A DNA stretch of 64,000 nucleotides, from assembly GCA_044238605.1 (NCBI GenBank), contig JBIICY010000001.1, positions 9,433 to 73,432 of the forward strand, read 5' to 3'. Origin of the DNA: Patescibacteria group bacterium (lineage in GTDB: Bacteria; Bacteroidota; Ignavibacteria; Kapaibacteriales; Kapaibacteriaceae). This document shows, one piece after another, positions 235 through 29,078 of this stretch (positions are counted from its first letter, which is position 1; each line of letters starts with the position of its first letter). The notes below the pieces were generated by a model that saw only the letters and a list, made by a program, of their open reading frames with translations, did not search any database and had not been told where the DNA came from. The position numbers were made by a program, and so were the translations under genes.

Positions 235-1473
235 TCATAGTGTACCACCACGATAATACTCTTTATACCACGCCACAAATCTCTGCAATCCTGTGCGCAG
301 ATCTGTCTGTGGACGAAACTTTGTGAGCTCAAACAACTCTTCGCAGTCGGCCCATGTTGTTGCTACATCCCCCGGCTGCATGTCAACATACTCCTTGATC
401 GCTGGCATCCCAAGCTCTTGCTCGAGGATCTCCACGAAATCGAGCAGGCTTACAGGAGCCCCGTTGCCGATGTTATACGTAGGGGCGAGCCGGTGGCTCG
501 CCCGCATGGCGTCATCAGCATGTGCCCGCATGGCGTCATCAGCATGTGCCCGCATGGCATCATCATCATGTGCCCGCATGGCGTCATCAGCATGTGCCCG
601 GATGGCATCATCGTCATGTGCCCGGATAGCGTCATCAGCATGCGCCCGGATGGCGTCATCAGCATGCGCCCGGATGGCGTCATCACATGCCCGCGCGGCG
701 CCGTCACATGCCCCGTCACGGGCGAGCCACCGGCTCGCCCTTACCTGATCGTCGTGCGTGTCTACTGCCCCGACAAGGCGCACGATGCTCTCGACGATGT
801 CGTCGATGTACGTGAAGTCGCGGCTTAGGTTGCCATGGTTGTAGATGTTGATGGGCTCTCGGGCAAGGATCTTCTCGGCAAAGGAGAAGTAGGCCATGTC
901 GGGACGTCCCCACGGACCATACACGGTAAAGAAGCGGAGTCCGGTGCACGGGATCTGGTAGAGATGGTTGTAGCAATAGGCCATCAGCTCGTTGCTGCGC
1001 TTGGTTACCGCATACAAACTCACGGGCTGGTCTACTCTGTCGGTTGTGCGAAATGGAACATCCGTATTGGCCCCATACACGCTACTGCTACTAGCATAGA
1101 ACAAGTGACGGGGCTTGTGTCGCCTACAGGCTTCCAGAATATTCAAAAACCCAACGATGTTCGATGAGATGTAGGCATCGGGGTTCTCAATGCTATACCG
1201 CACACCAGCTTGCGCAGCAAGATGACACACCAACTCGGGCTTGTGAGTTTCGAAGATGGATGCGATAAGCCCCTTATCCTCGATATCACCCAGATAGAAC
1301 GTAACAGACGTCCCAAGCTGGGCAAGACGTGCATGCTTTAAGGAGGGGTCGTAGTAGTCGTTGCAGTTATCGATGCCGACAACATTCCAGCCGTCTTCCA
1401 CCAGACGTTTTGCTACGTGATACCCTATGAATCCGGCAATCCCCGTAACGAGAATTGTACGTGTATCGTGCAT
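235..1473 (-). CDS. NAD-dependent nucleotide-sugar epimerase/dehydratase (UDP-glucuronate 4-epimerase-like), carrying an in-frame ~80 aa repeat insertion
   Basis: N-terminus TILVTGIAGFIGYHV (Rossmann GxxGxxG), YASSSSVYG...YAVTK active-site region and C-terminal YNIGNGAPVSLLDFV are typical of WbpP/Cap1J-type epimerases. I trimmed the start to MHDTRTILVTG because the ORF-track N-terminal extension runs into the repeat region. Residues AVDTHDDQVRASRWLARDGACDGAARACDDAIRAHADDAIRAHADD... are encoded by the 24-bp tandem repeat at 482-740. Confidence 0.8.
   Translation of the reverse strand: MHDTRTILVTGIAGFIGYHVAKRLVEDGWNVVGIDNCNDYYDPSLKHARLAQLGTSVTFYLGDIEDKGLIASIFETHKPELVCHLAAQAGVRYSIENPDAYISSNIVGFLNILEACRRHKPRHLFYASSSSVYGANTDVPFRTTDRVDQPVSLYAVTKRSNELMAYCYNHLYQIPCTGLRFFTVYGPWGRPDMAYFSFAEKILAREPINIYNHGNLSRDFTYIDDIVESIVRLVGAVDTHDDQVRASRWLARDGACDGAARACDDAIRAHADDAIRAHADDAIRAHDDDAIRAHADDAMRAHDDDAMRAHADDAMRAHADDAMRASHRLAPTYNIGNGAPVSLLDFVEILEQELGMPAIKEYVDMQPGDVATTWADCEELFELTKFRPQTDLRTGLQRFVAWYKEYYRGGTL
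482..740. repeat. 24-bp tandem repeat (~9 copies, catggcgtcatcagcatgtgcccg-like) bounded by two 21-bp palindromes gggcgagcc(g/a)(g/c)cggctcgccc, lying in-frame inside the epimerase CDS
   Basis: Direct reading of the sequence; the unit length of 24 is 8 codons, so frame is preserved. The same palindrome family appears as a terminator-like hairpin at 33633-33653. Confidence 0.85.
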
Positions 1474-1515
1474 AGATATTCCCCCGTGGCAAAGATAACA
1501 GGGGCACCAATACAG

Positions 1516-1872
1516 GGGCACGATATATCGTGCCCGCAGGGTACACATGGGTACGGGGGTACGCGTAGGGGCGACCCAGCGTGGTCGCCCAATGAAGCGT
1601 AGGGGCGACCCAGCGTGGTCGCCCAATGTCGCCCAATGAAATGGTGGGGAAACAATGTCGCCCTCGCGGTAGCGAGGGCATATGCATCATGCGCGAGCTT
1701 CCTCGGCACTACGTGCCTCGGAATGACGCACGCCTTCGCTTTTTTCAATAGGCGCAAGCGCGCCTGCGGCGCGCTTGCGCCACAACACCAACCTAATGCA
1801 TGCCGCGTCATTCCGAGCGCAGCGAGGAACCCAATGCACGCTGCGTCATTCCGAGCGCAGCGAGGAACCTCG
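1516..1872. repeat. Composite palindromic repeat scaffold: a gggcacgatatatcgtgccc palindrome, then A hairpins (cgtaggggcgacccagcgtggtcgcccaatgaa x2), a B element (~100 bp, contains ccctcgcg.tagcgaggg and ggcactacgtgcc hairpins), a C hairpin (ggcgcaagcgcgcc tgc ggcgcgcttgcgcc, 14-bp perfect stem) and D 39-bp tandem repeats (cgtcattccgagcgcagcgaggaacc...) x2
   Basis: Inverted repeats are visible directly. The same A-B-(C)-D architecture recurs at 2658-2978, 3774-4276, 5057-5565, 10588-10793 and 11578-11895. Confidence 0.85.
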
Positions 1873-2160
1873 CTACTCAACTACGTCCGTGTTTACCCAA
1901 GAAAGTAGTTCAGCATTCGAGAGCGCTGCGATGCGTGCCATTAGGCTAAGGGGTGGGTCAGCGCAGAAGTGGATGAGATCATCGAGTTCTTCTTCCGTAA
2001 TGCCCACAAGCTTCGCAAACTCGGGTTGTGAAATCTTGCGCTCTTCCATGATCTGACAGAGGCGTCGAGAGAGGGAGAATTGCCAACGATGATATGTGCG
2101 AGTTTCAGCAGGAATGTGCTCAACCTTTTCCTTGATGTTCAGCATATCTATGCCCTCCAC
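1873..2160 (-). CDS. XRE-family helix-turn-helix protein, putative HigA-like antitoxin
   Basis: RRLCQIMEERKISQPEFAKLVGITEEELDDLIH is a classic HTH_3 motif. It is 93-95 aa, overlaps the upstream partner gene by 13 nt, and has paralogs at 4277-4558 and 10794-11066. Confidence 0.6.
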   Translation of the reverse strand: MEGIDMLNIKEKVEHIPAETRTYHRWQFSLSRRLCQIMEERKISQPEFAKLVGITEEELDDLIHFCADPPLSLMARIAALSNAELLSWVNTDVVE

Positions 2161-2657
2161 AATGAAAGATCAAAAGAATCATGGTAACGGGCCATTAACT
2201 CCGAACCTACAATCATAATCTCACCGGTATCGATTCTAGAGTTGAGAACATGAGTTATACGTCCAAGAAACCCTGCTTCGTTATTTGCATCGCTGTTTGC
2301 CTGGATTGCCTCGTTTTTCGACTTGACGAAACCAGATCCAATCAGCAGTATCCTATTGCTAGTGCCCGCGTACGAACATAGCAATCTACTGGGATTGTAA
2401 CGAGTACGCACACGTTCCTTGTGGTTGTACATAGCAAACACACCTAACTCTGGTCTTTCGGGCCGCAGATATGCTTGCCGGATAACCGATTCCTGTGATA
2501 ACCATTCCAGGAAATCCATTAAGGCATCCGCATTGTTGGCGTCTGACTGATAGAGCTGCTCCATGAACTTATCCGCAAGACAAATGCCGTTGCGCTCAAT
2601 GGCATAGAACGAACAGCTTCCCTCCAACCATGGAATGGTTCGAATTGACTCCGGCAT
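2148..2657 (-). CDS. Gp49/DUF891-type RelE/HigB-like toxin homolog with N- and C-terminal extensions
   Basis: The core LRPERPELGVFAMYNHKE...RLLCSYAGTSNRILLIGSGFVKSKNEAIQ fits the Gp49-family pattern (LKELR...R.LY....R.IVLLHGFiKK.qk.p..EI). It lies upstream of the HTH partner, as in HigB-HigA modules. Paralogs are at 4562-5056 and 11083-11577. Confidence 0.5.
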   Translation of the reverse strand: MPESIRTIPWLEGSCSFYAIERNGICLADKFMEQLYQSDANNADALMDFLEWLSQESVIRQAYLRPERPELGVFAMYNHKERVRTRYNPSRLLCSYAGTSNRILLIGSGFVKSKNEAIQANSDANNEAGFLGRITHVLNSRIDTGEIMIVGSELMARYHDSFDLSLWRA

Positions 2658-2978
2658 AGAGAACCCCGCAATGCGTGTTTTGATGCGCGAAGGAGGTTAG
2701 CCCCCTTCTGGTTCTCTGTGCCGTGAATGCCTGTGAACGTGACATGCGTATGGACGACCCAGCGTGGTCGCCCAATAAAATGATGGCGTAACAACGTCAC
2801 CCTCGCGAACGAGGGTCATATGCACCATCCGCGAGCTTCCTCGGCACTACCTGCCTCGGAATGACGCACGCCGCGTCATTCCGAGCGAAGCGAGGAACCT
2901 CGCTGTTCTTGATGTCACGTTTTGAGATCCTGACGGCACGTAGGGGTGTGAAAGCTCATTTTCCGGCAGGAGTTTAAT
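2658..2978. repeat. Composite repeat: conserved ~95-bp spacer upstream of the Gp49-like gene, then an A-like hairpin, a B element, one D unit and a conserved 40-bp leader (atgtcacgttttgagatcctgacggcacgtaggggtg) that abuts the KilA-N start
   Basis: Near-identical to 5057-5565 and 11578-11700. The leader is shared with the region upstream of the zeta-like gene (5527-5565). Confidence 0.8.
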
Positions 2979-3773
2979 ATGTCCAAGCGAATTGAAGTCC
3001 TCAACGTAGGTATTCGAGTTACACCCATTGGAGACAAAGAATACATCTGCTTGACGGACATCGGCAGATATCGAAATCCTGCAGCAAGCGATGATCTAAT
3101 ACGTAACTGGATTCGTAATAGGAACACACTGGAGTTTCTTGGGCTGTGGGAGTTGATCTACAACCCAGAGTTTAAATCCGTCGAATTCGACGGGATTAAA
3201 ATGCAGGCGGGCTTAAACAGTTTTTCACTAACCCCAAAGCAATGGATTGATCAGACATCAGCTATTGGAATTCAGTCAAGAGCTGGACGATATGGCGGAA
3301 CGTATGCGCATCCAGACATAGCGTTCGAGTTTGCAGCATGGATCTCCGTAGAGTTCAAGCTCTACCTCATCAAAGAATTTCAACGTCTCAAAGAGTCGGA
3401 ACGACGCGAAACGGACTGGGATATACGTCGGAACTTAGCCAAAATCAATTACCGCATTCACACCGATGCAATTCAACATAATCTTCTACCTGTCCAGTTA
3501 ACTGCAAGTAGTTCGGGTCGTGTCTTTTCCTCAGAGGCCGACCTTCTAAATCTTGCTCTATTTGGCCGAACTGCATCCGAATGGAGAAGCTCTCACCCCA
3601 ATGAACATGGCAACATACGCGACCATGCAACAGGTGCTCAGCTCGTTTGTTTGTCGAACCTAGAAAACCTTAATGCGTTATTCATTCAGCAGGGCATATC
3701 TCAAACAGAGCGGCTGCAGCGCTTAAATGAAATAGCAATTGCCCAGATGAAGATTCTAACCAGCGACCGGTAA
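2979..3773 (+). CDS. KilA-N domain-containing protein
   Basis: The N-terminal EVLNVGIRVTPIGDKEYICLTDIGRYRN...DLIRNWIRNRNTLEFLGLWELIYNPEFKSVEF matches the KilA-N (APSES-like) domain family common in phage and Bacteroidota accessory DNA. Confidence 0.7.
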   Translation: MSKRIEVLNVGIRVTPIGDKEYICLTDIGRYRNPAASDDLIRNWIRNRNTLEFLGLWELIYNPEFKSVEFDGIKMQAGLNSFSLTPKQWIDQTSAIGIQSRAGRYGGTYAHPDIAFEFAAWISVEFKLYLIKEFQRLKESERRETDWDIRRNLAKINYRIHTDAIQHNLLPVQLTASSSGRVFSSEADLLNLALFGRTASEWRSSHPNEHGNIRDHATGAQLVCLSNLENLNALFIQQGISQTERLQRLNEIAIAQMKILTSDR

Positions 3774-4276
3774 AATCAGCAATCCCGTAGGGGCGACCCT
3801 ACGTGGTCGCCCAATGAAATGGTGTTCGTAGAGCCGACCCTGCGTGGTCGCCCAATGAAATGGTGTTCGTAGAGCCGACCCTACGTGGTCGCCCAATGAA
3901 ATGGTGTTCGTAGAGCCGACCCTGCGTGGTCGCCCAATGAAGTATTGGGGTGTGTGGTCGCCCAATAAAATGATGGCGTAACAACGTCACCCTCGCGAAC
4001 GAGGGGCATATGCACCATCCGCGAGCTTCCTCGGCACTACGTGCCTCGGAATGACGCACGCCTTCGCTTTTTTCAATAGGCGCAAGCGCGCCTGCGGCGC
4101 GCTTGCGCCACCACACCAAACATTGCACGCCGCGTCATTCCGAGCGCAGCGAGGAACCTAAATGCATGCCGCGTCATTCCGAGCAAAGCGAGGAACCTAA
4201 TGCATGCCGCGTCATTCCGAGCGCAGCGAGGAACCCAATGCACGCCGCGTCATTCCGAGCAAAGCGAGGAACTGCG
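3774..4276. repeat. Composite repeat: A-type hairpin units x4 (~41-bp tandem, gtagagccgaccct(a/g)cgtggtcgcccaatgaaatggtgttc), then B, a C hairpin and D 39-bp units x4
   Basis: Direct reading. It shows the same order of elements as 1556-1872. Confidence 0.85.
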
Positions 4277-4558
4277 CTACTCAACTAGGTCCGTGTTTAT
4301 CCAAGAAAGTAGCTCAGCATTCGAGAACGCTGCAATGCGTGCCATTAGGCTAAGGGGCGGGTCGGCGCAGAAGTGGATGAGATCGTCGAGTTCTTGTTCG
4401 GTAATACCCACCAGCTTTGCAAACTCGGGTTGTGAAATCTTGCGCTCTTCCATGATCTGACAGAGGCGTCGAGAGAGGGAGAATTGCCATTCAAAGAACT
4501 TATTCTCTTCTGCTGGCAACTGGCCAACGACATTTACTGCAGAGCTCATAGTGTTCAT
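4277..4558 (-). CDS. XRE-family HTH protein, putative antitoxin (paralog of 1873-2160)
   Basis: About 85% identical to the 1873-2160 product over the HTH core (FEWQFSLSRRLCQIMEERKISQPEFAKLVGITEQELDDLIH). Confidence 0.6.
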   Translation of the reverse strand: MNTMSSAVNVVGQLPAEENKFFEWQFSLSRRLCQIMEERKISQPEFAKLVGITEQELDDLIHFCADPPLSLMARIAAFSNAELLSWINTDLVE

Positions 4559-4561
4559 TCC

Positions 4562-5056
4562 TCAGAAATCAAATGAATCGTTAGATAAAGGCACTAACTC
4601 CGAGCCGATCACGAGTATCTCACCACATTCTATTCGTTGTCCAACCTTTCGCGCAATATCATAAAGAAACTCTGCTTCACGATTAGCTAACCCATTTCTT
4701 TGTATCGGCTGATCCGTTAACTTGATAAAGCCCGACCCCAGAAGGAGCAATCTGTTACTTTGCCCCACATAGCTACACAGCAACCTGCTTCTGTTGTAGG
4801 GCTCTGCTACTAGCTCCTTGTGATTGTACATTGCAAACACACCGAGCTCCGGACGCTCTGGTCGCAGATATACTTGCCTAACGTGTGTTTCGTTGGATAT
4901 CATTTCAAGAAATGCACGGAGTCTCTTTGCAGCAAAGGGATCTTCAACGTCGAGTTCTTCTAGGAACGCATCTGCCAAGCAGACTCCATCACGCTCGATA
5001 GCATAGAACGAACAGCTTCCCTCCAACCATGGAATGATTCGAATTGACTCCGGCAT
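4562..5056 (-). CDS. Gp49/RelE-HigB-like toxin homolog, extended (paralog of 2148-2657)
   Basis: MPESIRIIPWLEGSCSFYAIERDGVCLAD...RLLCSYVGQSNRLLLLGSGFIKLTDQPIQ is a paralog of the 2148-2657 product. It shares the conserved C-terminal RIECGEILVIGSEL...DSF tail. Confidence 0.5.
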   Translation of the reverse strand: MPESIRIIPWLEGSCSFYAIERDGVCLADAFLEELDVEDPFAAKRLRAFLEMISNETHVRQVYLRPERPELGVFAMYNHKELVAEPYNRSRLLCSYVGQSNRLLLLGSGFIKLTDQPIQRNGLANREAEFLYDIARKVGQRIECGEILVIGSELVPLSNDSFDF

Positions 5057-5565
5057 AGAGAACCTCGCACTGCGTGTTTTGATGCGCGAAGGAGGTTAGC
5101 CCCCTTCTGGTTCTCTGTGCCGTGAATTGGTTTGAACGTGACATGCGTAGGGGCGACCCTACATGGTCGCCCTTTGAAATGGTGGGGAAACAACGTCACC
5201 CTCGCGAACGAGGGTCATATGCACCATCCGCGAGCTTCCTCGGCACTACGTGCCTCGGAATGACGCATGCCTTGTCATTCCGAGCGAAGCGAGGAACCCA
5301 ACGCACGCCTCGTCATTCCGAGCGCAGCGAGGAACCCAATGCACGCCACGTCATTCCGAGCGCAGCGAGGAACCTAATTGCATGCCGCGCCATTCCGAGC
5401 GCAGCGAGGAACCTAATTGCACGCCACGTCATTCCGAGCGCAGCGAGGAACCTAATTGCACGCCACGTCATTCCGAGCGCAGCGAGGAACCTAATTGCAC
5501 GCCACGTCATTCCGAGCAAGGCGAGGAACCCATGTCACGTTTTGATATCCTGACGGCACGTAGGG
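5057..5565. repeat. Composite repeat: spacer, A, B, then D 39-bp tandem units x7 and the shared 40-bp leader
   Basis: Seven near-identical 39-bp units (cgtcattccgagcgcagcgaggaacctaattgcacgcca). The leader atgtcacgttttgatatcctgacggcacgtaggggtg immediately precedes the zeta-like start. Confidence 0.85.
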
Positions 5566-6102
5566 GTGATGGATACACCCTACATTATCGTTATCGCCGG
5601 ACCCAACGGAGTTGGGAAGTCAACGTTTGCGAAGTGGTACCTTCGGCAGCGACCTGCTTGCAAAATGATCGTAGATCCCGATGCAATTGCTAAAGAGCTG
5701 AATATCCCTGATGAGGCTCAGCGCAACATTGCTGCAGGACGCATTGCCCTGGAAACGATCGATGCCAACATCCGCAATGGGATATCGTTTGCGATAGAAT
5801 CAACGCTCTCTGGTAAGACGCTGGCTGCAAAACTCGAACAAGCGCACAACGCGGGGTACTCAATCGAGATATGCCTGCTTCAGATTCCCTCTGTAGAGAT
5901 ATCTACCCAGCGCGTTGTTGAGCGTGTAAATGCTGGCGGACACAACATTCCGGCTGACGCACAGCTACGCCGATTTGAAAGATCTTATCGTAATTTTCAC
6001 GACATATACATCGAGGTATGCCATGAGTGGAGTATCTATGACGCAGACACCAACCCTCCAGAACTCAAGAGCACAGGCCGTGGTGGATTCTCTACGCAAT
6101 GA
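5566..6102 (+). CDS. Zeta-toxin-like P-loop kinase / AAA-ATPase (COG4185-like)
   Basis: The Walker A motif YIIVIAGPNGVGKSTF, followed by ...IVDPDAIAKEL... and a length of ~178 aa, is typical of zeta-toxin/UDP-GlcNAc-kinase-like proteins. Confidence 0.65.
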   Translation: MMDTPYIIVIAGPNGVGKSTFAKWYLRQRPACKMIVDPDAIAKELNIPDEAQRNIAAGRIALETIDANIRNGISFAIESTLSGKTLAAKLEQAHNAGYSIEICLLQIPSVEISTQRVVERVNAGGHNIPADAQLRRFERSYRNFHDIYIEVCHEWSIYDADTNPPELKSTGRGGFSTQ

Positions 6103-6337
6103 GTTGTTGTCCGGGCATGAACATCGCGCGTGCATTGCCGCTGCCTTCATCCGCTCAAGCTATGACATTCGCGACCAGTATCGCCGGGCGGGACGGGGGC
6201 TCGTTGTTATGATCGATGGGGTGGTACAGTCTGTCCATCCCGACTCTTCCCTTCTACCAGATCTTTCTTCCCTCGTTCCGATCGTAAAAGAGTTGTTTCC
6301 GTTGCCACCAGACGAAGAACCGCCAGGGTTTGAGTGA
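6023..6337 (+). CDS. Hypothetical small protein; it overlaps the 3' end of the zeta-like gene in another frame and may be spurious, a frameshifted continuation or a partner gene
   Basis: A 105-aa ORF (MSGVSMTQTPTLQNSRAQAVVDSLRNELL...) with no recognisable domain. GC-rich DNA yields long chance ORFs. Confidence 0.2.
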   Translation: MSGVSMTQTPTLQNSRAQAVVDSLRNELLSGHEHRACIAAAFIRSSYDIRDQYRRAGRGLVVMIDGVVQSVHPDSSLLPDLSSLVPIVKELFPLPPDEEPPGFE

Positions 6338-6339
6338 GA

Positions 6340-6440
6340 AACAATGACGAAGTACTAATGACGAAGTACTAATGACGAAGTACGGATGACAAGCGAAATC
6401 GTACTTGGTAATTCGTCGTTAGTACTTCGTCATTCGCGTC
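6340..6440. terminator. Long inverted repeat containing a 14-bp tandem (atgacgaagtacta x3) and its inverted copy; putative bidirectional terminator between convergent genes
   Basis: gacgaagtactaa ... ttagtacttcgtc are reverse complements. The structure sits between the 3' ends of the + strand ORFs and the - strand gene 6442-8388. Confidence 0.5.
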
Positions 6441-6441
6441 T

Positions 6442-8388
6442 CTACTTCCCTATCGCCGCATACGACTTCTGAAGATATTGGTTTATCAGCGGGAGTGTGC
6501 TGCCCAGACTGCGGGCTTTCTCGAGGTTTGTGATTGCTTCGCGGTGCTGGCCGAGAATACTATTTGCAATGCCCAGCGTGATGTATGGTTCTGGCTTGGT
6601 TGGACGTACCTGTATGGCATACTGACTATACGTAACAGCTGTTGCAGGGTTATTGGTCTTGAGAGATTCTACTGCCGCGCCGTAGGCTGCAGAATATATG
6701 CTCTCCGTGTTAGGCGCTCCGTTCTCTTCAAGAAGTCTTGCGTACGAGGCTTTGTAATCGCGCAGGGCGCCGGTGGATTCTCTAAGGTTAGACTTCGTAA
6801 CAGCACGATTGAGCAGAATGCGCGGGTGATTAGGATTGAGTGAGTCGGCCTTGTTGAGGATCATAAGGGACTTTTCCAATTGGCCACGTTCGCCATAGAG
6901 AATGCCAAGCAACTGATAGGTTCGCCATCGAACTACGCCCCGCTGCTCAAGCACCTGCAGGTCCTGGAACGCCCGTGCTTTGTCGCCGAGGAGGTAGTAA
7001 TTCAGTGCACGAGATTCGTAGGCAATCTCCGATGCCGAACCGTGCAGCGCGATGACCTTGCTCCACAATGTTTCTGAGTTCTCCCATACTGCTGCCTGCG
7101 CACGCGTAACAACCAAGCACATGCCGGCGAACCCTATTGCCAAGGCCCATCCAGCAGCTGGGTATCTGTCTTTGATCCATGATGCACCGTAGGCTAGGAG
7201 CAACAAGCTGCCAATGTAGGGCACGTATGTGTAGCGCTCTGCCATGACTACCTGTCCAACAGAAACAAGCTGAAGCACCATGGCAACAAACAAGACAAAG
7301 ATTCCGATGCACAGAACAATCAGCCTCTGTAGGTCTGGGTTACGTCGTGCGGCATACACCGGTCCCACAACCATTCCAAGCGCTAGCACTGGATACCCAT
7401 AATACCAGATTGGCAGAGCCCCTTGCTTGAGAACCGGATATGGATACAATGCCGATAGGTTGTACGGCACAAGCATCTTGAACCAGTACGTCACATAACC
7501 AAAGCCCGCAAACGCAATACGTTGAGTAAAGCTGTAGGGGTCGGCCTTGGTGATGGCCTCTTCCGACTGAAACTTGACGGCTATAAGGCCCATCACAACA
7601 GAGAAGGCCAGCATTGGAAGCTTCTCGAGTACCGCACGTTTATCTATCTGACGTCGCAGGTAGTAGTCAACAACCAACAAAAGAATCGGCAACGGCGTAG
7701 CCATAGCTTTCGACAACACGGATAGTACGAATGCAGCCATGGCGATGGCAAAGTGGAGCATGCTCCTCTCGCGCACATAGCGCACATAGAAGATCAGCGA
7801 CACCAGCAGAAACAATGTGTAGAGCACATCTTTTGGCTCTGAGATCCATGCAACACTCTCGACGTGCATTGGATGGATACCAAACAATAGTGCCGTAAAA
7901 CCGGCCACAAACGTCGCATTTGGTAGAAGCCTGCGCACAAAGACAAACACAAGAAGTGTGTTAATGATGTGCAGAAGAAGATTCGTTAGTGCAAAGCCAG
8001 ATGCATCATCACCGTGCAACTTGTAATCGACTGCCAGAGAGAGCATCGTGATCGGGTGATAGTTCGATGCAACCTGAGTCCCGGTATCAAACATTTGGGA
8101 AATCGATTGACCACTAAGCTCCTTGACAAGGGGCTGCTCGGTTACATACTGGTTGTCGTCCCAGTTTGTGAACTGCTTTGTTGATCGCAGCGCCGGCTGG
8201 AATGCAACAACTACAGTAACAATCAATACAACTGGCCACAGCCATCGCTGCAGCAGACCAGAAGCAGGCACTGGTGGACGCTTGGTAGCGCGTTGATCTG
8301 AGTGATCTGTAGCCTTCTTAGACTTCGATGATTGTCCCATGCAACATGCTAACCCAAAAAATGTAAAACGCACAGTCTGCAGTCGCAA
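6442..8388 (-). CDS. TMTC/PMT-family (GT39-like) membrane glycosyltransferase with C-terminal TPR repeats
   Basis: It has multiple transmembrane segments and an N-terminal loop motif FTNWDDNQYV (the F..WDD..Y motif of PMT/TMTC O-mannosyltransferases). The C-terminal ~250 aa is TPR-like (AIQVRPTKPEPYITLGIANSILGQHREAI...). The true start may be the internal MGQSSK (ending at ~8340). Confidence 0.6.
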   Translation of the reverse strand: MRLQTVRFTFFGLACCMGQSSKSKKATDHSDQRATKRPPVPASGLLQRWLWPVVLIVTVVVAFQPALRSTKQFTNWDDNQYVTEQPLVKELSGQSISQMFDTGTQVASNYHPITMLSLAVDYKLHGDDASGFALTNLLLHIINTLLVFVFVRRLLPNATFVAGFTALLFGIHPMHVESVAWISEPKDVLYTLFLLVSLIFYVRYVRERSMLHFAIAMAAFVLSVLSKAMATPLPILLLVVDYYLRRQIDKRAVLEKLPMLAFSVVMGLIAVKFQSEEAITKADPYSFTQRIAFAGFGYVTYWFKMLVPYNLSALYPYPVLKQGALPIWYYGYPVLALGMVVGPVYAARRNPDLQRLIVLCIGIFVLFVAMVLQLVSVGQVVMAERYTYVPYIGSLLLLAYGASWIKDRYPAAGWALAIGFAGMCLVVTRAQAAVWENSETLWSKVIALHGSASEIAYESRALNYYLLGDKARAFQDLQVLEQRGVVRWRTYQLLGILYGERGQLEKSLMILNKADSLNPNHPRILLNRAVTKSNLRESTGALRDYKASYARLLEENGAPNTESIYSAAYGAAVESLKTNNPATAVTYSQYAIQVRPTKPEPYITLGIANSILGQHREAITNLEKARSLGSTLPLINQYLQKSYAAIGK

Positions 8389-8427
8389 GATAATGCAGTA
8401 CCAACTCGCGACCGCACCAATCAGGCA

Positions 8428-10428
8428 TTACTGATTACATGGACACGTTACATTGAGTTCGGTAGGATTTGTTACAACCGAGCACGTAGCCGTTGAAACC
8501 ACGCATCGGTATGGCCCCTTTTTAGAAAGTCGTGCGGAGTTCAACGTCAGCACTGAAGTAGTACTTCCTGAAACATCAGGACTATTCGAAAGAGCCACAT
8601 ATTCGCTACCATTAAACACTTGCCACTGATACGAAATAGATTCGCTAGGGCTGGAAGTAGCTGTTACAGCCAACTGAACCTGATGACCGCCTGCTACTGA
8701 TGTCTGATGTACAAGATCGCGAACAACCAGATTACATGTGATAGCTGATCCACGCGTTACCCATTGCCAGTTTTGGACGGAATACGTGCTCTGATCGATA
8801 GCATTGGCAACCGTTTGTCCTCCGCCCTCGTCAAAATGCCAAAGCCCCAAAGCATTTGCTGGGAGATCTGCGAGCTCGTATCGTGATTTGGGCGTGAAGT
8901 TGGATGAATGCATCACATTTCGCGTTACGATCACTTCGTCGATTTCGCCATGGAACCGGCGTCCACCGAGCGGCCAATTTCCAATGTACACCTCAGCAGC
9001 TGCTCCCCAGACAAGATTCCAAGCGGCCTGACTTACAAGAGTACCGTTTACATAGACCTTTGCCTGACCATCCCCATACGTACACAGAAGATGCTGCCAC
9101 TGCCCTTGCTGAAGAGTAAAGTTTGCACCCAAAAAGCCCCAAGTTGCCCCGCTATTCAGCGACTGAACAACCCAATTTGCGTTCGGCAGTACCGCTACAT
9201 TCCCGTGGTTACCATCTACAAGAACGGCATAGCCCTGTCGCTGCGCGGCAGGCTTAACCCACATAGCGACGGAAAACGCTGTAGTCTGGGTTCCGAGGTC
9301 GCCCAGGAGAACATATCCCGCATCTGCCGCAGGTATGGTTATCCCACGCACACCTCCTCCTGGATTGGGAGTGCCAGGATTCTTCACGGCTGCCGAATTG
9401 TCTGTAGGCATCCGAAGTCCGCACTCAGCAGTATAAACAGCACATGTCGGATTCGAAACGATACACCGATATGTTCCAACGAGCTCTGGCTTCATTGACG
9501 CAATTGTTAGCACAGATGATGTCACATTCTGATAATCTGTTCCGTTTGCCAGATTAACAAAATATGCCCCCTGCTTTCGCTGCCATTGATAGCTTAGCAC
9601 TCCAGCAGTTGAGACTGCTGTTACTTGAATAGTAGTATTTAGTCCGGTGCTTACAGTCGCGCCAAGTGGTTGCGATTGTATCGTAACCGTAGAGCAAGGT
9701 TCGTTCTCGAGTGTACGACTAATCCATTGCCAGTTCGTGACGGAATTTGACTGATTTGTATACGCATTCGTAGTCGTGGTTCCACTACCTTCATCAAAAT
9801 GCCACAGCCCTAATGTGTTAGCAGGAAGGTCAGATAATTCGTATCGATTTTTTGGAGAAAAGTCCGTTGTTTGCAAAACATTGCGTGTAACGATTACTTC
9901 ATCGATCTCACCGTGAAATCGACGCCCACCCAGCGGCCAGTTGCCGATGTATACCTCTGCTGCTGCTCCCCAGACTAGGCTCCAGTTAGCCTGACTTACA
10001 AGTGTGCCGTTGACGTACACCTTTGCTTTACCACTTCCATACGTGCACAGAAGATGCTGCCATTGTCCTTGCTGTAATGTAAATGTTGCTCCGAGGAAAC
10101 CCCATGTAGCACCAGCATTCAGCGACTGGATAACCCAGTTTGCGTTAGGCAATACAGCGACGTTTCCGTGATTACCATCTACTAGCACAGCATACGTTTG
10201 AAGTTGTGAAGCAGGCTTAACCCACATTGCTACAGAAAACTCTGTTGTCTGGGTTCCAAGATCACCAAGGAGTATATACCCCGCATCTGCGGCTGGTATT
10301 GTTATGCCACGGACGCCCCCGCCTGGATTCGGCGAACCGGGATTATACAAACCCCATGATGTCGTTTGAGTTGATGCCTCGAAAGACGATGCAAAAACAA
10401 TAAGGAGGATGCAAAAGATACTGCGCAT
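8428..10428 (-). CDS. Secreted tandem-repeat protein: signal peptide + 2 x (LamG/concanavalin-like domain + Ig-like domain)
   Basis: Signal peptide MRSIFCILLIVFASSFEAS. There are two ~330-aa internal repeats, ~80% identical at nucleotide level (8900-9300 vs 9850-10250). Each contains a Laminin_G_3-like block (VAMWVKPA...GNWPLGGRRFHGEIDEVIV) followed by an Ig-like block (SYQWQ...GTYRCIVSN). It is Ser/Thr-rich. Confidence 0.6.
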   Translation of the reverse strand: MRSIFCILLIVFASSFEASTQTTSWGLYNPGSPNPGGGVRGITIPAADAGYILLGDLGTQTTEFSVAMWVKPASQLQTYAVLVDGNHGNVAVLPNANWVIQSLNAGATWGFLGATFTLQQGQWQHLLCTYGSGKAKVYVNGTLVSQANWSLVWGAAAEVYIGNWPLGGRRFHGEIDEVIVTRNVLQTTDFSPKNRYELSDLPANTLGLWHFDEGSGTTTTNAYTNQSNSVTNWQWISRTLENEPCSTVTIQSQPLGATVSTGLNTTIQVTAVSTAGVLSYQWQRKQGAYFVNLANGTDYQNVTSSVLTIASMKPELVGTYRCIVSNPTCAVYTAECGLRMPTDNSAAVKNPGTPNPGGGVRGITIPAADAGYVLLGDLGTQTTAFSVAMWVKPAAQRQGYAVLVDGNHGNVAVLPNANWVVQSLNSGATWGFLGANFTLQQGQWQHLLCTYGDGQAKVYVNGTLVSQAAWNLVWGAAAEVYIGNWPLGGRRFHGEIDEVIVTRNVMHSSNFTPKSRYELADLPANALGLWHFDEGGGQTVANAIDQSTYSVQNWQWVTRGSAITCNLVVRDLVHQTSVAGGHQVQLAVTATSSPSESISYQWQVFNGSEYVALSNSPDVSGSTTSVLTLNSARLSKKGPYRCVVSTATCSVVTNPTELNVTCPCNQ

Positions 10429-10587
10429 ACTGGCCCCGTCTCATAATACGCCGAGGAACAAATCCTGCAGAAACTAATGGTGCTTCAAGCCAGCTCCGGC
10501 GCCAGGCTGGGCCGCAAATCTAGAGGGGTACGTAGTATCTAAAAATGTGAAACAAGTAGTATCTGCACAGCGGTCTTAGGGGCAAAA

Positions 10588-10680
10588 GTCATACCCTACA
10601 TTATCGTTATGGCTTGGCCCAACGTAGATGGGAAGTCCACGTATGTGAGGTGGTACCTGCAGAGGCACCTGATGCACGCT
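10588..10680 (+). pseudogene. Degenerate remnant of the zeta-like kinase 5' end (leader plus first ~25 codons), followed by D-type 39-bp repeats (10670-10790)
   Basis: gtcataccctacattatcgttatggcttggcccaacgtagatgggaagtccacgtatgtgaggtggtacct aligns with 5566-5640 (ggatacaccctacattatcgttatcgccggacccaacggagttgggaagtcaacgtttgcgaagtggtacct) but has lost the P-loop. Confidence 0.45.
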
Positions 10681-10793
10681 GCGTCATTCCGAGCGTAGCG
10701 AGGAACCCAATGCACGCCGCGTCATTCCGAGCGTAGCGAGGAACCCAATGCACGCCGCGTCATTCCGAGCGTAGCGAGGGACCTCGCTGTTCG

Positions 10794-11066
10794 CTACTCA
10801 ACTACGTCCGCATCTTTCCAAAAGAGTAACTCGGTGTTCAAACGGGCGGAGATCTGCGCAAGCAGGCTCAGAGATGGATCAGCTCCGGAGTGAAGCAGGG
10901 CATCGAGTTTATCTTCCGAGATTCCAGCCTTTGCAGCAAACTCGTGCAACGTGAGCTGCTGTTCCTCCAAGACTTGAGATATTCTCACTGCAAGCGAAAG
11001 TTGCCAGTCAACAAGGAGGCGTTCTTCAGGAAGCAGCTGGGCCGATAATTGTTCAACGATGTGCAT
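10794..11066 (-). CDS. XRE-family HTH protein, putative antitoxin (divergent paralog)
   Basis: WQLSLAVRISQVLEEQQLTLHEFAAKAGISEDKLDALLH is an HTH. It has the same position and C-terminal motif (ELLFWKDADVVE) as the other two HTH genes. Confidence 0.6.
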   Translation of the reverse strand: MHIVEQLSAQLLPEERLLVDWQLSLAVRISQVLEEQQLTLHEFAAKAGISEDKLDALLHSGADPSLSLLAQISARLNTELLFWKDADVVE

Positions 11067-11082
11067 GTTCTACTCAACATGG

Positions 11083-11577
11083 TTAGAATGTAAATGAATC
11101 GGGATATAACGGCAACAGTTTCGAGCCCACTATGATTATCTCGCCACATTCAATTCTATCGTTGACCTTCTTCGAAACCGATGCAAGATACTGAGCTTCG
11201 TAACTCGCCCTGCCGTTCATCTGAATTGGTTCATTTCTTGTCTTAATAAAACCCGAGCCAACAAGAAGGATTCGTGCACTGTCACCAACATAGGTGCACA
11301 ACAGTCTGCTTGGATTATACTGCTCAGATGGGAACTCCTTGTGATTATACAGAGCAAACACACCAAGGCCTGGAAGCTCTGGACGCAATATCGCCGGCCT
11401 TATTTGTTGCCTCGTGCGAAGTCCCTGGATCATTCTCGATAACCGCAGCGAGTACCCCCTGTCCGTACCTTCCAATATCTCCATAAACTCATCTGCCAGA
11501 CACACTCCATTACGCTCAATCGCATAGAACGAACACCTTCCTTCCAACCATGGAATGATCCGAATCGACTCCGACAT
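11083..11577 (-). CDS. Gp49/RelE-HigB-like toxin homolog, extended (third paralog)
   Basis: I set the start at MSESIRIIPWLEGRCSFYAIERNG (ATG at 11575-11577); the ORF-track N-terminal extension reads through the repeat. Core RLLCTYVGDSARILLVGSGFIKTRNEPIQ; tail RIECGEIIIVGSKLLPLYPDSF. Confidence 0.5.
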   Translation of the reverse strand: MSESIRIIPWLEGRCSFYAIERNGVCLADEFMEILEGTDRGYSLRLSRMIQGLRTRQQIRPAILRPELPGLGVFALYNHKEFPSEQYNPSRLLCTYVGDSARILLVGSGFIKTRNEPIQMNGRASYEAQYLASVSKKVNDRIECGEIIIVGSKLLPLYPDSFTF

Positions 11578-11913
11578 AGAGAACCTCGCACTGCGTGTGT
11601 TGATGCGCGATGAAGGGTAGCCCCCTTCACGTTCTCTGTGTCGTGAATTGGTTTGAACGTGACATGCGTAGGGGCGACACTGCGTGGTCGCCAAACAAAG
11701 TATTGGGGTGTGTGGTCGCCCGATAAAATGGTGGCGTGACAATGTCACCCTCGCGAACGAGGGGCAGATGCACCATCCGCGAGCTTCCTCGGCACTACGT
11801 GCCTCGGAATGACGCACGCCGCGTCATTCCGAGCAAAGCGAGGAACCCAATGCACGCCGCGTCATTCCGAGCAAAGCGAGGAACCTCGCTACTCGCTACT
11901 CGCTACTCGCTGC
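11578..11913. repeat. Composite repeat: conserved spacer, degenerate A, B, D 39-bp units x2, then a 9-mer microsatellite (cgctactcg x4) that overlaps the stop of the DUF2520 gene
   Basis: Direct reading. The 9-mer family recurs at 33728-33752, 34213-34245 and 38795-38830. Confidence 0.8.
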
Positions 11914-12801
11914 TCTCTTAATCACTTCCTTCAGCGCATTCGTCAGATGAATGTACTGCTCGCGCAGGTTTTCGGGCATGGCGTCGAGCTGACGTTGCAC
12001 GGCGTCCATGTCTCCGCGGACGAGTGGACCTGTGAGCGCAAAGGGGGTGCCATCGTGCATGGCTTTGGCGGCGTTGTCCAGCGTGCGCTGCATGATGGGC
12101 ACGAGAAACGTCTCCGCTGGTATGCCAGCCTCATTTGCCAAACCACGCGCTAGATCATACGCCGCATAGGTAAAGTTCGATGCAGCTACTGCAGCTGCAT
12201 GATACCGCCGCTTCGACACTGGATCTGTCTTCGGCAACCGGAACGGGAAGCCCCCTGTGAGCTTGACAAACTCTTCGGTAAGGGGCCACGCATCATCATC
12301 ACACTCCACGCCCCAGCCTATGCCGTTAAGCGCCGATGGGTCTACAGAACCAAATGTCTGGAATGGGTGCGCCGCCGCAATCCTCGCCCCACATGCACGA
12401 AGGGGCTCCAAGATGTCCGTACCGAGCGAGCCGTTCACATGCATCACGAGTGATCCTGCAAGGCGCTCTCCATACTGCTCCGCCAATCGCTGGATAACTG
12501 CCGGAAGAAAGGCGTCTTTGCAGGCGAGGAGGAAGATGGATGACGAGGGACTAGGGACTAGGGACGAGGGACTAGGTACTAGGGACGAGGTACTGGGTAC
12601 TAGAGACGAGGTACCTGATACGACAGCTCTTGTTCCGTGTAGAAACTCTCTCGCAGATAGGGTTTCCACATTCAACGTCATCTGGTCCCCAGTCCCTAGT
12701 CCCTCGTCCCTAGTACCTAGTCCCTCGTACCTAGTACCTAGTACCTTCCCAACCGACTCCCCCACTCTTCCTTTTCCGATAATCGTAACATGCGTTATCA
12801 T
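11896..12801 (-). CDS. Rossmann-fold NAD(P)-binding / DUF2520-type oxidoreductase-like protein, with an in-frame ~70-aa insertion of a palindromic repeat element
   Basis: I set the start at MITHVTIIGKGRVGESVGKV (GxGxxG). The C-terminal PFALTGPLVRGDMDAVQRQLDAMPENLREQYIHL is DUF2520-like. Residues LGTRYEGLGTRDEGLGTGDQ...SGTSSLVPSTSSLVPSPSSLVPSPSS are encoded by the 9-mer-armed element at 12538-12748. The C-terminal AASSE-stop is encoded by the cgctactcg microsatellite. Confidence 0.55.
   Translation of the reverse strand: MITHVTIIGKGRVGESVGKVLGTRYEGLGTRDEGLGTGDQMTLNVETLSAREFLHGTRAVVSGTSSLVPSTSSLVPSPSSLVPSPSSSIFLLACKDAFLPAVIQRLAEQYGERLAGSLVMHVNGSLGTDILEPLRACGARIAAAHPFQTFGSVDPSALNGIGWGVECDDDAWPLTEEFVKLTGGFPFRLPKTDPVSKRRYHAAAVAASNFTYAAYDLARGLANEAGIPAETFLVPIMQRTLDNAAKAMHDGTPFALTGPLVRGDMDAVQRQLDAMPENLREQYIHLTNALKEVIKRAASSE
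12538..12748. repeat. MITE-like palindromic element: arms built from 9-bp units (gggactagg/gacgaggga on one side, inverted cctagtccc/gtacctagt on the other) around a ~75-bp unique core; inserted in-frame inside the DUF2520 CDS
   Basis: The arms at 12541-12612 and 12687-12746 are reverse complements made of 9-mers. Related copies are at 14485-14554, 15255-15392 and 29016-29078. Confidence 0.8.
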
Positions 12802-14556: not shown

Positions 14557-15891
14557 TCAAGCTACCCACACCCTCTCCACATGGTTTACACCATAGTGGT
14601 ACACAATGTCCTTGTACGAAGGCACATCGTAGAGTACAACGTCTGCTCGTTTACCAACTTCGAGGGAGCCACATGTGGCTGATATGCCAAGTGCAGCCGC
14701 ACCGTTGATGGTGGATGCAACAATGGCTTCTTCGATGCTCATACGCATGTTCATGCAGGCAAGCGACATGATCGTTGGCATGCTCTCGCTGTAGCTCGAC
14801 CCCGGATTGCAATCTGTGGCAAGGGCAACGACAGCCCCTTCGGCGATCATCGTGCGCGCATCCGGATATGGCAGACGAAGCGTGTAAGCAGTGCCTGGAA
14901 GCAGCGTGCATACAACTCCTGCATCACGCAGAATGCGTATCTCGTCGATTGTACTGTGCTCCAGGTGATCGGCGCTGATACACCCAAGCTCCGCAGCCAT
15001 CTGCGAGGCTCCGATGAGCGCAATTTCATCCGCATGAACCTTGAGCTTGAGCCCAAGCTCCTTGGCTTTCTTCAGTATTCGCGTAGACTGCTCAACAGTA
15101 AAGAACCCTGCATCTGTGAACACATCACAGAATTCAGCAATCCCCTGCTCTGCAACAGCGGGTAACATCTCATTGATAACGATGTTTACGTATGCCTCGG
15201 GATCATGCTTCCACTCAGGGGGCACGGCGTGAGCACCGAGGAAGGTGATGAAGACACTAGGTACTAGGGACGAGGGACTAGGTACTAGGGACGAGGAACG
15301 AGGGACTAGGGACGAGGGACTAGGTACCGGGGACGAGGGACTAGGGACGAGGGACGGAGACTGCTGTACCTTGTACCTAGTACCTTGTACCTTCTTCGTC
15401 GCTTCCAACATCTTCAGCTCGCTCTCTGTATCCAACCCATAGCCGCTCTTGATCTCCACCGTCGTGGTGCCATGAGCCAGCGCAGATTGAACGAGCTTGC
15501 GTCCGTTTGCTGCGAGCTGCTCGAGCGTTGCCTCGCGCACGGCGCGCATGGTTGTGAGGATGCCACCGCCTTCTGCGGCGATCTCTGCGTACGTTGCGCC
15601 TGCGACACGACGCGCGAATTCATGTGCGCGAGAGCCGGCAAACACCATGTGCGTGTGAGAGTCGACAAATCCGGGCAGAACAGTTTTGCCTGTGCATTCG
15701 ATGACCGTTACATCTGTATGATCAAGGTGCTTGGCGTCTTCTGTTGTGCCTATCCATTCGATCACATCGCTAAAGAGGATAGCCCCTTGATTGATCTCTC
15801 CTACTTCGCGCATGGCTTCGCCAGTAATGAAGGGGGCTCCGTTGGCATCAACAGTTACGAGAGAAGAGATGTTGGTAAGGAGTGTCTTCAT
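14557..15891 (-). CDS. hutI: Imidazolonepropionase (amidohydrolase superfamily), with an in-frame ~45-aa S/P-rich insertion derived from the 9-mer element
   Basis: KTVLPGFVDSHTHMVFAGSRAHEF and HADEI...TDCNPGSS metal-binding motifs. The segment VQGTRYKVQQSPSLVPSPSSPVPSPSSLVPRSSSLVPSPSSLVPS is encoded by the repeat at 15255-15392. Confidence 0.8.
   Translation of the reverse strand: MKTLLTNISSLVTVDANGAPFITGEAMREVGEINQGAILFSDVIEWIGTTEDAKHLDHTDVTVIECTGKTVLPGFVDSHTHMVFAGSRAHEFARRVAGATYAEIAAEGGGILTTMRAVREATLEQLAANGRKLVQSALAHGTTTVEIKSGYGLDTESELKMLEATKKVQGTRYKVQQSPSLVPSPSSPVPSPSSLVPRSSSLVPSPSSLVPSVFITFLGAHAVPPEWKHDPEAYVNIVINEMLPAVAEQGIAEFCDVFTDAGFFTVEQSTRILKKAKELGLKLKVHADEIALIGASQMAAELGCISADHLEHSTIDEIRILRDAGVVCTLLPGTAYTLRLPYPDARTMIAEGAVVALATDCNPGSSYSESMPTIMSLACMNMRMSIEEAIVASTINGAAALGISATCGSLEVGKRADVVLYDVPSYKDIVYHYGVNHVERVWVA
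15255..15392. repeat. 9-mer-armed palindromic element (ggtactagg/gacgaggga units ... gtaccttgtacctagtacc) inserted in-frame in hutI
   Basis: Direct reading; the length is a multiple of 3 and the ORF is uninterrupted. Confidence 0.8.
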
Positions 15892-29015: not shown

Positions 29016-29078
29016 GGGAACAGGGACTAGGGACTAGGGACCAGGGACTAGGGACGGTACCTAGTACCTTGTACCTAG
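29016..29078. repeat. Intergenic copy of the 9-mer-armed palindromic element (gggactagg x4 ... ggtacctagtaccttgtacctag)
   Basis: Direct reading. It lies upstream of ruvB, and the ORF-track N-terminal extension of ruvB reads through it. Confidence 0.75.

Follow-up and report, generated by a model that had tools for sequence, protein, structure and literature searches.

Repetitive extragenic palindromic (REP) elements have been divided into two superfamilies, tagged by GTAG or by CGTC (Di Nocera et al. 2013, PMC3733652). Members of the GTAG superfamily carry an unpaired GTAG tag and, after it, a G+C-rich palindrome of 20-40 bp, and members of the CGTC superfamily carry a CGTC or TGTC tag, an 8-9-bp stem that starts with A-T pairs, a 4-5-nt loop and a short CCA-like tail; head-to-tail tandems and tag-to-tag dimers are rare configurations for CGTC REPs (PMC3733652). 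The dRS3 repeat of Neisseria, which is CGTC-1 in this scheme (PMC3733652), is interleaved with RS repeats in Neisseria intergenic mosaic element (NIME) arrays, which are dynamic between strains, promote the exchange of adjacent genes and have been reported to be Neisseria-specific (PMC1797815). In E. coli, folA-apaH is a plastic site that holds or lacks the ccdO157 toxin-antitoxin (TA) system, often with a REP (PMC3184786; in part PMC3333891). Here, a 64-kb stretch of contig JBIICY010000001.1 (the window) was analyzed, in which the region 1563-11884 contains six composites of four palindromic repeats, A, B, C and D, that partition candidate TA and defence genes. REPs are usually regarded as dispersed, passive or regulatory hairpins. 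The region described here is read, with a probability of about 0.6, as a strain-variable accessory islet organized as a REP mosaic array of the NIME or bacterial interspersed mosaic element (BIME) kind, in which modules change through recombination.

The borders of the islet are conserved genes, an epimerase gene on one side and DUF2520-cysS on the other. Between them, six composites of 110-490 bp, all in direct orientation and mutually 83-100% identical, separate three pairs of toxin and helix-turn-helix (HTH) genes (TA1 to TA3), a KilA-N gene, a zeta-like kinase gene, the remnant of a second kinase gene, and an operon encoding a glycosyltransferase and a secreted LamG protein; S and E denote the leaders of the toxin genes and of the kinase and KilA-N genes, respectively. 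Relatives of the locus, labelled L001-L154, are contigs from metagenomes or the Sequence Read Archive (SRA) and from metagenome-assembled genomes (MAGs), among them the 160-kb contig L149 and, from an independent sample, L150.

Repeat units and their family assignment

Pattern searches of the window, with mismatches tolerated, placed every copy of A, B, C and D on the + strand between 1563 and 11884, and found zero copies in the remaining ~52 kb. In shuffled sequence, the A hairpin was matched 0.13 times on average and the other three patterns not at all; periods were determined with Tandem Repeats Finder and a repeat finder. The original prediction, made from the sequence alone, had described an A-B-C-D architecture that recurs six times. 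Six composites and four repeat types are indeed present, but C occurs in two of the six and one composite consists of D alone.

Repeat A comprises nine hairpin units (GGCGACC-N6-GGTCGCC) that are arranged in tandem, as had been proposed, with a period of 34 or 41 bp. The unit reads cGTAG-GGGCGACC-N6-GGTCGCCC, with a GTAG tag, an 8-bp stem and a 6-nt loop; seven units combine GTAG with GGGCGACC/GGTCGCCC (or GCCGACC), in agreement with the unpaired GTAG and G+C-rich 20-40-bp palindrome of GTAG-tagged REPs, and two of the nine have a degenerate tag or stem. The five copies of B share a 35-nt core, GAGCTTCCTCGGCACTACNTGCCTCGGAATGACGC (B2), which is exact in all five and probably represents a CGTC-type unit in inverse orientation with a 5-bp inner stem, while B1 (CGTC-ACCCTCG-CGAA-CGAGGGT) has a 4-nt loop and fits a CGTC-tagged REP. 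The tag of B2 abuts the tag of the first D, which creates a long imperfect palindrome, and the spacer of two composites holds hairpin C (two copies), whose perfect 14-bp stem was confirmed. D is represented by 19 units with a period of 38-39 bp, at one to seven units per composite instead of the two to seven first reported; it reads CGTC-ATTCCGAGC-GNA-GCGAGGAAC (ATTCC...GGAAC), frequently with CCA after it, and the CGTC tag is found in 17 of the 19. Folding of the A-B-C units as single strands, a check suggested with the original prediction, recovered the A, B1 and C hairpins and the long B2/D palindrome as predicted structures, with z of -4.0 to -4.6.

Judged by sequence architecture, A can be classed as a GTAG-tagged REP in head-to-tail tandem, B1 as a CGTC-tagged REP, B2 as a putative inverted CGTC unit and D as a putative CGTC-tagged REP amplified to a minisatellite. 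The core of D, GTCATTCCGAGC-N3-GCGAGGAAC, was seen in at least 120 species-representative genome stretches, and the matches listed include Acidobacteriota, Bacteroidota, Verrucomicrobiota, Chloroflexota, Armatimonadota, Gemmatimonadota and Proteobacteria; among these matches the core is frequently multi-copy per genome and has an inverted partner near 33 of 137 sites. Because the D core occurs across so many phyla, the repeat units are not of a new kind; their unusual feature is the arrangement, with units of one orientation amplified in tandem and gathered at a single locus. The exact B2 core had no match in 185,579 species genomes (one per GTDB species) and was found in eight metagenome contigs, seven of which represent the present locus. 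A full-text literature search with the D sequence returned unrelated primers and nothing else.

The original prediction had likened the region to an integron or to a cluster of attC sites lacking integron integrases (CALIN), and small accessory and TA modules split by co-oriented, conserved, structured repeats do resemble such an array. TA cassettes are typical of chromosomal integrons. This likeness did not hold. As that prediction itself had stated, attC boxes and an integrase are missing: pairs of R'' (RYYYAAC) and R' (GTTRRRY) sequences 50-160 nt apart numbered zero on either strand of 1400-12000, and no recombinase or transposase, including Phage_integrase and REP-associated tyrosine transposase (RAYT) proteins, was found among the 40-odd window open reading frames (ORFs) of at least 180 aa, all of which were covered and which encode housekeeping or surface proteins. 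In L149, the 9 kb on the far side of the epimerase likewise had no recombinase; the genes there are rpe, an aldo-keto reductase gene, trpS and uvrD. The composites represent 110-490 bp of tandem units as compared to 57-141 bp for attC, the units bear GTAG or CGTC REP tags, and the modules are multi-gene with conserved leaders of their own. The absence of R''/R' pairs and of an integrase, together with the REP tags, led to rejection of the integron reading, and movement of attC-bounded cassettes by an IntI encoded elsewhere appears highly improbable. CRISPR, retron and diversity-generating retroelement readings were also rejected, as the D units abut without spacers and reverse transcriptase and cas genes are absent.

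Mosaicism between modules

TA1 is composed of HTH1 (1873..2160, - strand, 95 aa) and toxin 1 (2148..2657, - strand, 169 aa), and TA2 of HTH2 (4277..4558, - strand, 93 aa) and toxin 2 (4562..5056, - strand, 164 aa). In a sliding-window comparison of the three modules, TA1 and TA2 were 90-100% identical over D and the 3' two-thirds of the HTH gene; identity then dropped from 100% to 43% within ~60 nt, stayed at ~42-60% over the HTH N-terminus and most of the toxin, and rose to 92-97% in the initial ~100 nt of the toxin and in S, A and B. The HTH1 and HTH2 proteins are near-identical from residue 26 on (26-95) and unrelated before it. Since this pattern is the opposite of the uniform divergence that follows duplication, the mosaic would indicate gene conversion or recombination anchored in the repeats.

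A tandem segmental duplication of a ~2.3-kb unit (A-B-C-D, HTH and toxin, S-A-B-D-E, cargo), followed by divergence and decay with the repeats as passive passengers, could explain why the repeats all have one orientation and why blocks 1563-2948 and 3786-5568 share their internal order; the kinase remnant would represent decay, and the divergent kinase/toxin unit would be ancestral, as it is also found in L144. Such a history is nevertheless unlikely, given that scaffold and gene ends are 90-100% identical as opposed to ~45-55% for the coding cores, with the abrupt drop described above. It also leaves KilA-N and the kinase as different cargo behind one leader, and fits poorly with the several strain haplotypes and with TA3 copies that are identical between strains with diverged flanks.

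Variation between strains

Contigs L001-L006, from independent metagenome/SRA data, reproduce the order of the window piecewise with 99.5-100% identity, and the array is therefore not an assembly artefact of the window. The orthologous long contigs L149 and L150 were reached by a protein-database search with a spurious ORF translated from composite 1, a query that gave matches from no locus other than the present one. Along cysS-DUF2520 and in the epimerase gene, both match the window at ~95% identity, and they share the haplotype epimerase-A8-B-C-D2-TA1-S-A-B-D-E-KilA-N-A3-B-C-D-DUF2520, which is without window ~4160-11847 (a 7.7-kb indel) and hence without TA2, the kinase, the glycosyltransferase/LamG operon, the remnant and TA3. 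One hybrid composite represents the junction, and its mixture of diagnostic B bases places the junction inside the composite. In ~16 kb of L149 flanks no A, B or D units were found. The strain comparison called for in the original prediction thus revealed module presence/absence polymorphism with junctions inside composites.

Other contigs showed further arrangements. In L151, TA2 follows composite 1 directly, with a crossover within the D array, and in L016 a TA1-like module is joined via A-B1-B2-C-D2 to DUF2520. L020 carries a TA3 that is 100% identical to that of the window between flanks of 85-90% identity, and its composite 6 has an extra C and an extra B2-D. Copy numbers of A and D vary in almost every contig: composite 1 has eight A units in L149-L154, L018 has one D where composite 4 of the window has seven, and L021 has three D and two A where the window has one D and four A. 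Strains with ~5% divergence in their flanking genes have 100% identical orthologous B copies in composite 1. In L017 and L022, truncated genes for the kinase and for KilA-N abut REPs.

Under the reading as a recombining REP mosaic, the co-oriented composites would serve as portable homology because of their direct orientation and mutual identity of 83-100%. Unequal or homologous recombination and gene conversion between composites could delete, duplicate or swap whole modules, slippage or the same processes could alter the copy number of A and D, and these processes could also homogenize gene ends at the repeats while module cores stay divergent. We infer that recombination of the RecA type is responsible rather than a REP-specific enzyme, and likewise the direction, gain or loss, of individual events.

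Junctions in composites, one of them within the D array, could also be produced by a REP-specific recombinase or transposase encoded in trans that cuts CGTC or GTAG REPs and moves modules, with the composites acting as attC; candidates would be a RAYT/Y1 HUH or an IS110/Piv-type enzyme, by analogy with the integration of Neisseria filamentous phage into dRS3. Different REP clusters lie at the same palindrome centre in two genomes (see below), which suggests targeted insertion into a hairpin or cruciform, and a B2-C-D cluster accompanies an orphan HigA-like gene at another locus (L019). The CGTC-1 REP dRS3 is known to be targeted by phage integration and is a proposed recombinase site (PMC1797815). 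These three observations preserve some weight for site-specific movement, even though it is improbable on the whole. No such enzyme was found among the window ORFs of at least 180 aa or in the L149 flanks, and no dedicated transposase is known for CGTC REPs (PMC3733652). Crossovers do not fall at one point (A/B part in L149, D in L151, B in L016), cargo-truncation junctions are irregular, and 100-400 bp of homology at 83-100% identity are enough for RecA-dependent recombination.

A related but broader proposal, also doubtful, is that Kapabacteria-like bacteria possess an integrase-independent REP-cassette system. GTAG/CGTC REP composites would then be functional equivalents of attC, so that a module plus one composite might loop out and re-enter at another composite via RecA or an unseen REP-specific recombinase, a sequence of events that is equally speculative. 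It is no more probable that REP clusters would be targeted to the conserved promoter palindrome of the kinase/HigBA unit, as this proposal also holds. If true, it would offer a general route by which TA and defence islets are built and shuffled, conserved across genomes though the REP sequences turn over.

Several points weigh against the preferred reading of a recombination-driven REP mosaic. The head-to-tail tandem and tag-to-tag arrangements are rare among CGTC REPs, and the membership of A, B and D in the REP families follows from sequence architecture and not from dispersed high copy number. D has a 3-nt loop, and its stem has an A·C first pair and, on either side of a GCGNAGC mini-hairpin, two G·A mismatches, which makes it an atypical CGTC member. 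Homologous recombination as the cause is deduced from the positions of the junctions, and two cargo truncations, that of L017 and the kinase remnant of the window, have non-homologous junctions. The haplotypes come from short-read metagenome assemblies, which are possibly chimeric in repeats; only L149 and L150, from two samples, are on long contigs. With these points considered, the fallback offered by the original prediction, a REP-scaffolded recombination hotspot, was largely borne out, as the paralogous modules appear to be recombination mosaics and strains are polymorphic. The deflationary possibility raised alongside it, a lineage-wide REP family duplicated here as a single segment, is correct in that the units, by their architecture, belong to widespread REP superfamilies, but this particular composite is mostly found here and a single simple segmental duplication does not account for the array.

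Organization of the islet

Composite 1 (1563..1870, + strand, A2-B-C-D2) lies between the 5' end of the epimerase gene and the 3' end of HTH1 and contains A GTAG REPs at 1565 and 1599, a B1-like hairpin at 1657-1678, B2 at 1695-1729, C at 1751-1781 and D at 1806-1868. Beyond TA1, the toxin leader S1 (2656..2745, - strand) has an internal inverted repeat AGAGAACC...GGTTCTCT and ends in the palindrome half AACGTGACAT (2736-2745). Composite 2 (2746..2911, + strand, A1-B-D1, with a degenerate A tag; B1 2795-2815, B2 2833-2867, D 2874-2898) occupies the centre of the palindrome AACGTGACAT / ATGTCACGTT and is followed on the + strand by E1 (2912..2948), a 37-nt leader that is a copy of the kinase leader, and the KilA-N gene (2979..3773, 264 aa). 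Composite 3 (3786..4272, + strand, A4-B-C-D4, A period 41 bp) also includes an A' and has B1 at 3985-4005, B2 at 4023-4057, C at 4079-4109 and D at 4133-4272. After TA2 come S2 (5055..5144, - strand), composed of toxin leader and palindrome half, and composite 4 (5146..5530, + strand, A1-B-D7; B1 5194-5214, B2 5232-5266, D 5273-5529). The E2 leader (5532-5568), the kinase gene (5566-6102) and a partner ORF (about 6023-6337) form a + strand unit at 5532..6337.

The operon encoding the PMT_2/TPR glycosyltransferase (6442-8388, - strand) and the LamG/Ig secreted protein (8428-10428, - strand) lies inside the array, as had been recognized. It is followed by the decayed 5' end of the second kinase gene (10577..10660, + strand), which is preceded by a degenerate E; the decay inferred in the original prediction was traced to 10577-10658, with 79% identity to 5561-5642. 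Composite 5 (10664..10790, + strand) is D3 alone. TA3 is composed of HTH3 (10794..11066, - strand, 90 aa) and toxin 3 (11083..11577, - strand, 164 aa), and S3 (11576..11665, - strand), a toxin leader, ends in the palindrome half AACGTGACAT (11656-11665), with the right half (E) missing. Composite 6 (11667..11884, + strand, A1(+A')-B-D2; B1 11743-11763, B2 11781-11815, D 11822-11884), followed by four copies of CTCGCTA to 11915, abuts the DUF2520 gene. Composites occupy two kinds of site, (i) the centre of a conserved palindrome between a divergent toxin gene and the kinase or KilA-N gene and (ii) convergent 3' module ends.

A spacer upstream of every toxin gene was found as described (S at 2656-2728, 5055-5127 and 11576-11648). 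The identical 40-bp leader reported for KilA-N and kinase genes is shared as E, but it measures 37 nt and has one mismatch (2912-2948 and 5532-5568).

The G+C content of the islet is 0.48-0.52 as compared to 0.54-0.57 for the flanks. No tRNA or tmRNA was found as a possible integration target. Scans for sigma-70 promoters and intrinsic terminators, which are ill-suited to Bacteroidota-type promoters, performed no better than on shuffled sequence. A 14-bp tandem repeat (AATGACGAAGTACT, three copies) and its inverse form a ~100-nt palindrome (6343..6440) where the kinase partner ORF and the PMT_2/TPR gene converge; the palindrome is strain-variable (L017, L018). Searches of Rfam, which includes no attC family, at gathering and permissive thresholds gave nothing relevant, solely spurious sub-threshold miRNA matches on this palindrome.

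Other small repeats were observed in the window. A hairpin family GGCACGATA-N-TATCGTGCC occurs once at the left edge of the array (1517-1534) and as a 40-bp tandem pair between housekeeping genes (33670-33727); no other small repeat is common to the array edge and the remaining window. Within the epimerase ORF (235-1470, - strand), region 476-742 holds two mutually inverted GTAG-type REPs (479-503 and 718-742; stem GGGCGAGCC) with a 24-bp tandem array of ~9 copies (500-713) between them; the ORF stays open (411 aa, repeat 'DDAIRAHA'), and the internal array is far shorter in L149, L150, L153 and L023 (355-aa product). Heptamer tandem arrays are found inside the DUF2520 ORF (12542-12611 and 12685-12746, two inverted arrays within one coding gene) and at 11885-11915, 15256-15393, 29015-29055 and 38791-38995, with units such as GACTAGG, GTCCCTA, CTCGCTA and TCGCTGT, among others. 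Similar heptamers in L008, L011, L019 and L144 make this look like a lineage-wide microsatellite habit. T9SS-type domains are present among the window proteins; together with one named toxin homologue, from a Candidatus Kapabacteria MAG, they place the islet probably in a Kapabacteria-like member of the Bacteroidota.

Leaders and a related unit in a Kapabacteria genome

In L144, a contig of a Kapabacteria MAG (GCA_018883125.1), a zeta-like kinase gene and a small downstream ORF, whose product has the C-terminus LFPLPPEEEPPGFE as in the window, are divergent from a toxin and HTH pair, and a decayed second kinase gene lies next to them. Its leaders are homologous to E and S of the window, and in both the window and L144 they meet at a palindrome, AACGTGAC...GTCACGTT. 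A REP cluster is found at the exact centre of this palindrome in both genomes, yet the REPs differ, being A-B1-B2-D in the window and three copies of CGTCATTCCCGCGAAAGCGGGAATCC in L144. CGTCATTCCCGCGAAAGCGGGAATCC fits the Neisseria dRS3 consensus ATTCCC-N8-GGGAAT exactly. Downstream of the L144 HTH gene is an 800-bp mosaic of the CGTCATTCCCGCGAAAGCGGGAATCC REP, a GTAG REP (GTAGGGGCGAGAC-GCA-GTCTCGCCC, in a 34-bp tandem) and 32-bp, 8-bp and 7-bp tandem repeats. Because L144 shows the divergent kinase/toxin unit with homologous leaders, E in front of KilA-N can be regarded, from sequence comparison, as the kinase half of the divergent leader region, and KilA-N appears to have taken the place of a kinase.

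No CGTCATTCCCGCGAAAGCGGGAATCC REP occurs in the window; it was seen in Kapabacteria-like contigs (L144 1872-1897, 2836-2927 and 4203-4228; L004 2555-2580; L022 232-257; L145 6879-6904), in some strain variants (L022, L004) in place of B1. At a different locus, L019 contains six copies of B2, a C and two D beside an orphan HigA-like gene and a McrBC-type system. In a more distant relative (L012 and L013, 10001-10757), a homologous toxin and partner pair without REPs lies between the aldo-keto reductase gene and rpe, one intergenic site from the epimerase site in the shared trpS-uvrD neighbourhood (L149 11476-14789).

Cargo genes

The three toxin candidates are paralogues of 164-169 aa with 57-62% mutual amino acid identity, each paired with an Xre-type HTH protein, so the pair described three times in the original prediction is real. 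The Gp49-like identity given to the toxins there has support from the predicted fold alone, as no match was found in Pfam, NCBIfam, PHROGs or PDB sequences; 10 remote relatives of the toxins had no Pfam or NCBIfam match either, nor one to the Gp49 (PF05973), HigB or RelE models. The predicted fold is of the RelE/HigB type, with S. pneumoniae HigB and M. tuberculosis HigB1 as the closest structures. This family is tiny: 39 clusters were counted among 5.8 billion sequences, a whole-library HMMER profile search of 1.84 billion gave 32 representatives, and one member comes from a Candidatus Kapabacteria MAG. A small HTH gene follows the toxin gene in every relative examined, which is the HigBA gene order, and the more distant homologues of the pair are single-copy and without A, B or D repeats.

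HTH1, the HigA-like antitoxin candidate of TA1, matches Pfam HTH_26 (4.5e-4) and PADLOC PDC-M64C; HTH2 is the antitoxin candidate of TA2, and HTH3, that of TA3, matches HTH_3, HTH_26 and PDC-M64C. In PADLOC, toxin and HTH protein resemble PDC-M64B (5e-8) and PDC-M64C (7.5e-6), respectively, of the candidate system PDC-M64. TA1 to TA3 are thus best described as three paralogous higBA-like pairs, in which a toxin of predicted HigB/RelE fold precedes an Xre-HTH antitoxin candidate. The pairs probably stabilize the islet or act in defence, and the functions given here for the cargo are presumptive.

The KilA-N assignment was upheld (Pfam KilA-N 2.1e-20), and the protein is a full-length match to the PADLOC phage-defence candidate PDC-S22 (8.4e-123), with residues 2-262 aligned to positions 2-266 of the 281-position profile. 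The kinase also proved to be zeta-like, with matches to Zeta_toxin (2.8e-10; 40.4 bits with a cut-off of 22.3) and AAA_33 (2.2e-10) and a GPNGVGKS motif. Its partner ORF, located downstream and overlapping, has no Pfam match, is unrelated to epsilon and encodes the C-terminus LFPLPPDEEPPGFE. Kinase gene and small ORF (C-terminus LFPLPP[D/E]EEPPGFE) form a conserved pair (window 5566-6337; L144 1021-1804 and 3584-4137) that may represent a kinase toxin and a downstream antitoxin, and a decayed second kinase copy is near this pair in the window as well as in L144. The LamG/Ig protein (8428-10428) is internally duplicated (8801-9100 and 9764-10063, 74%); in L020 (1-275) it is only ~80-85% identical, compared to 100% for the adjoining TA3, and represents a divergent surface-protein allele beside a repeat array, a situation known from genes flanked by NIME.

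Comparison with known systems

NIME-type gene-exchange arrays have been believed to be peculiar to Neisseria, and the islet would place a NIME/BIME-like mosaic in a distant phylum, where it partitions TA and defence-candidate genes. It also provides a concrete example of how a defence islet may be assembled and reshuffled without an integrase, since strain variants differ by module and have their break points in repeats. The locus yields a small toxin family of predicted HigB fold that was previously without annotation. Three TA pairs with a near-identical DNA-binding half and leader, and with divergent cores formed by toxin and antitoxin N-terminus, could further serve as a natural system for the study of TA insulation.

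Like HigBA systems, the TA pairs have a HigB-type predicted toxin fold and a toxin gene in first position with an Xre-HTH gene downstream, but the toxins measure 164-169 aa instead of about 90-125 aa, lack a Pfam Gp49 or HigB match and belong to a family of few representatives. The kinase pair differs from zeta-epsilon systems, in which the epsilon-type antitoxin lies upstream, by its downstream partner ORF. In outcome, the array resembles chromosomal integrons and CALINs, as co-oriented structured repeats part small modules, often TA modules, and strains differ by module; unlike these, it lacks an attC signature, IntI and promoterless cassettes of one ORF, and its junctions extend over 100-400 bp of homology. 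With the BIMEs of E. coli it shares mosaics of REP hairpins and conserved linker motifs, an intergenic location and variable copy number. BIMEs have palindromic units of alternating orientation in hundreds of dispersed copies, whereas the units of the window are co-oriented, tandem and at one locus, and no RAYT was seen among window ORFs of at least 180 aa.

The likeness to NIME includes arrays of CGTC-type REPs mixed with other repeat families, copy number and length that vary between strains, arrays that flank variable genes, and recombination end points in the arrays (PMC1797815). A divergent secreted protein (LamG/Ig) is located inside the present array, and a REP with the exact dRS3 consensus is found in the related contigs L144, L004 and L022, though not in D of the window. 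By comparison, the window comes from a different phylum, its D is ATTCC-N11-GGAAC with G·A mismatches and not dRS3, and its units are head-to-tail tandems instead of dRS3-RS-dRS3. The window further combines GTAG REPs with CGTC REPs in the same composite, and its array flanks candidate TA and defence modules that are present or absent as a whole, as opposed to the exchange of alleles seen with NIME.

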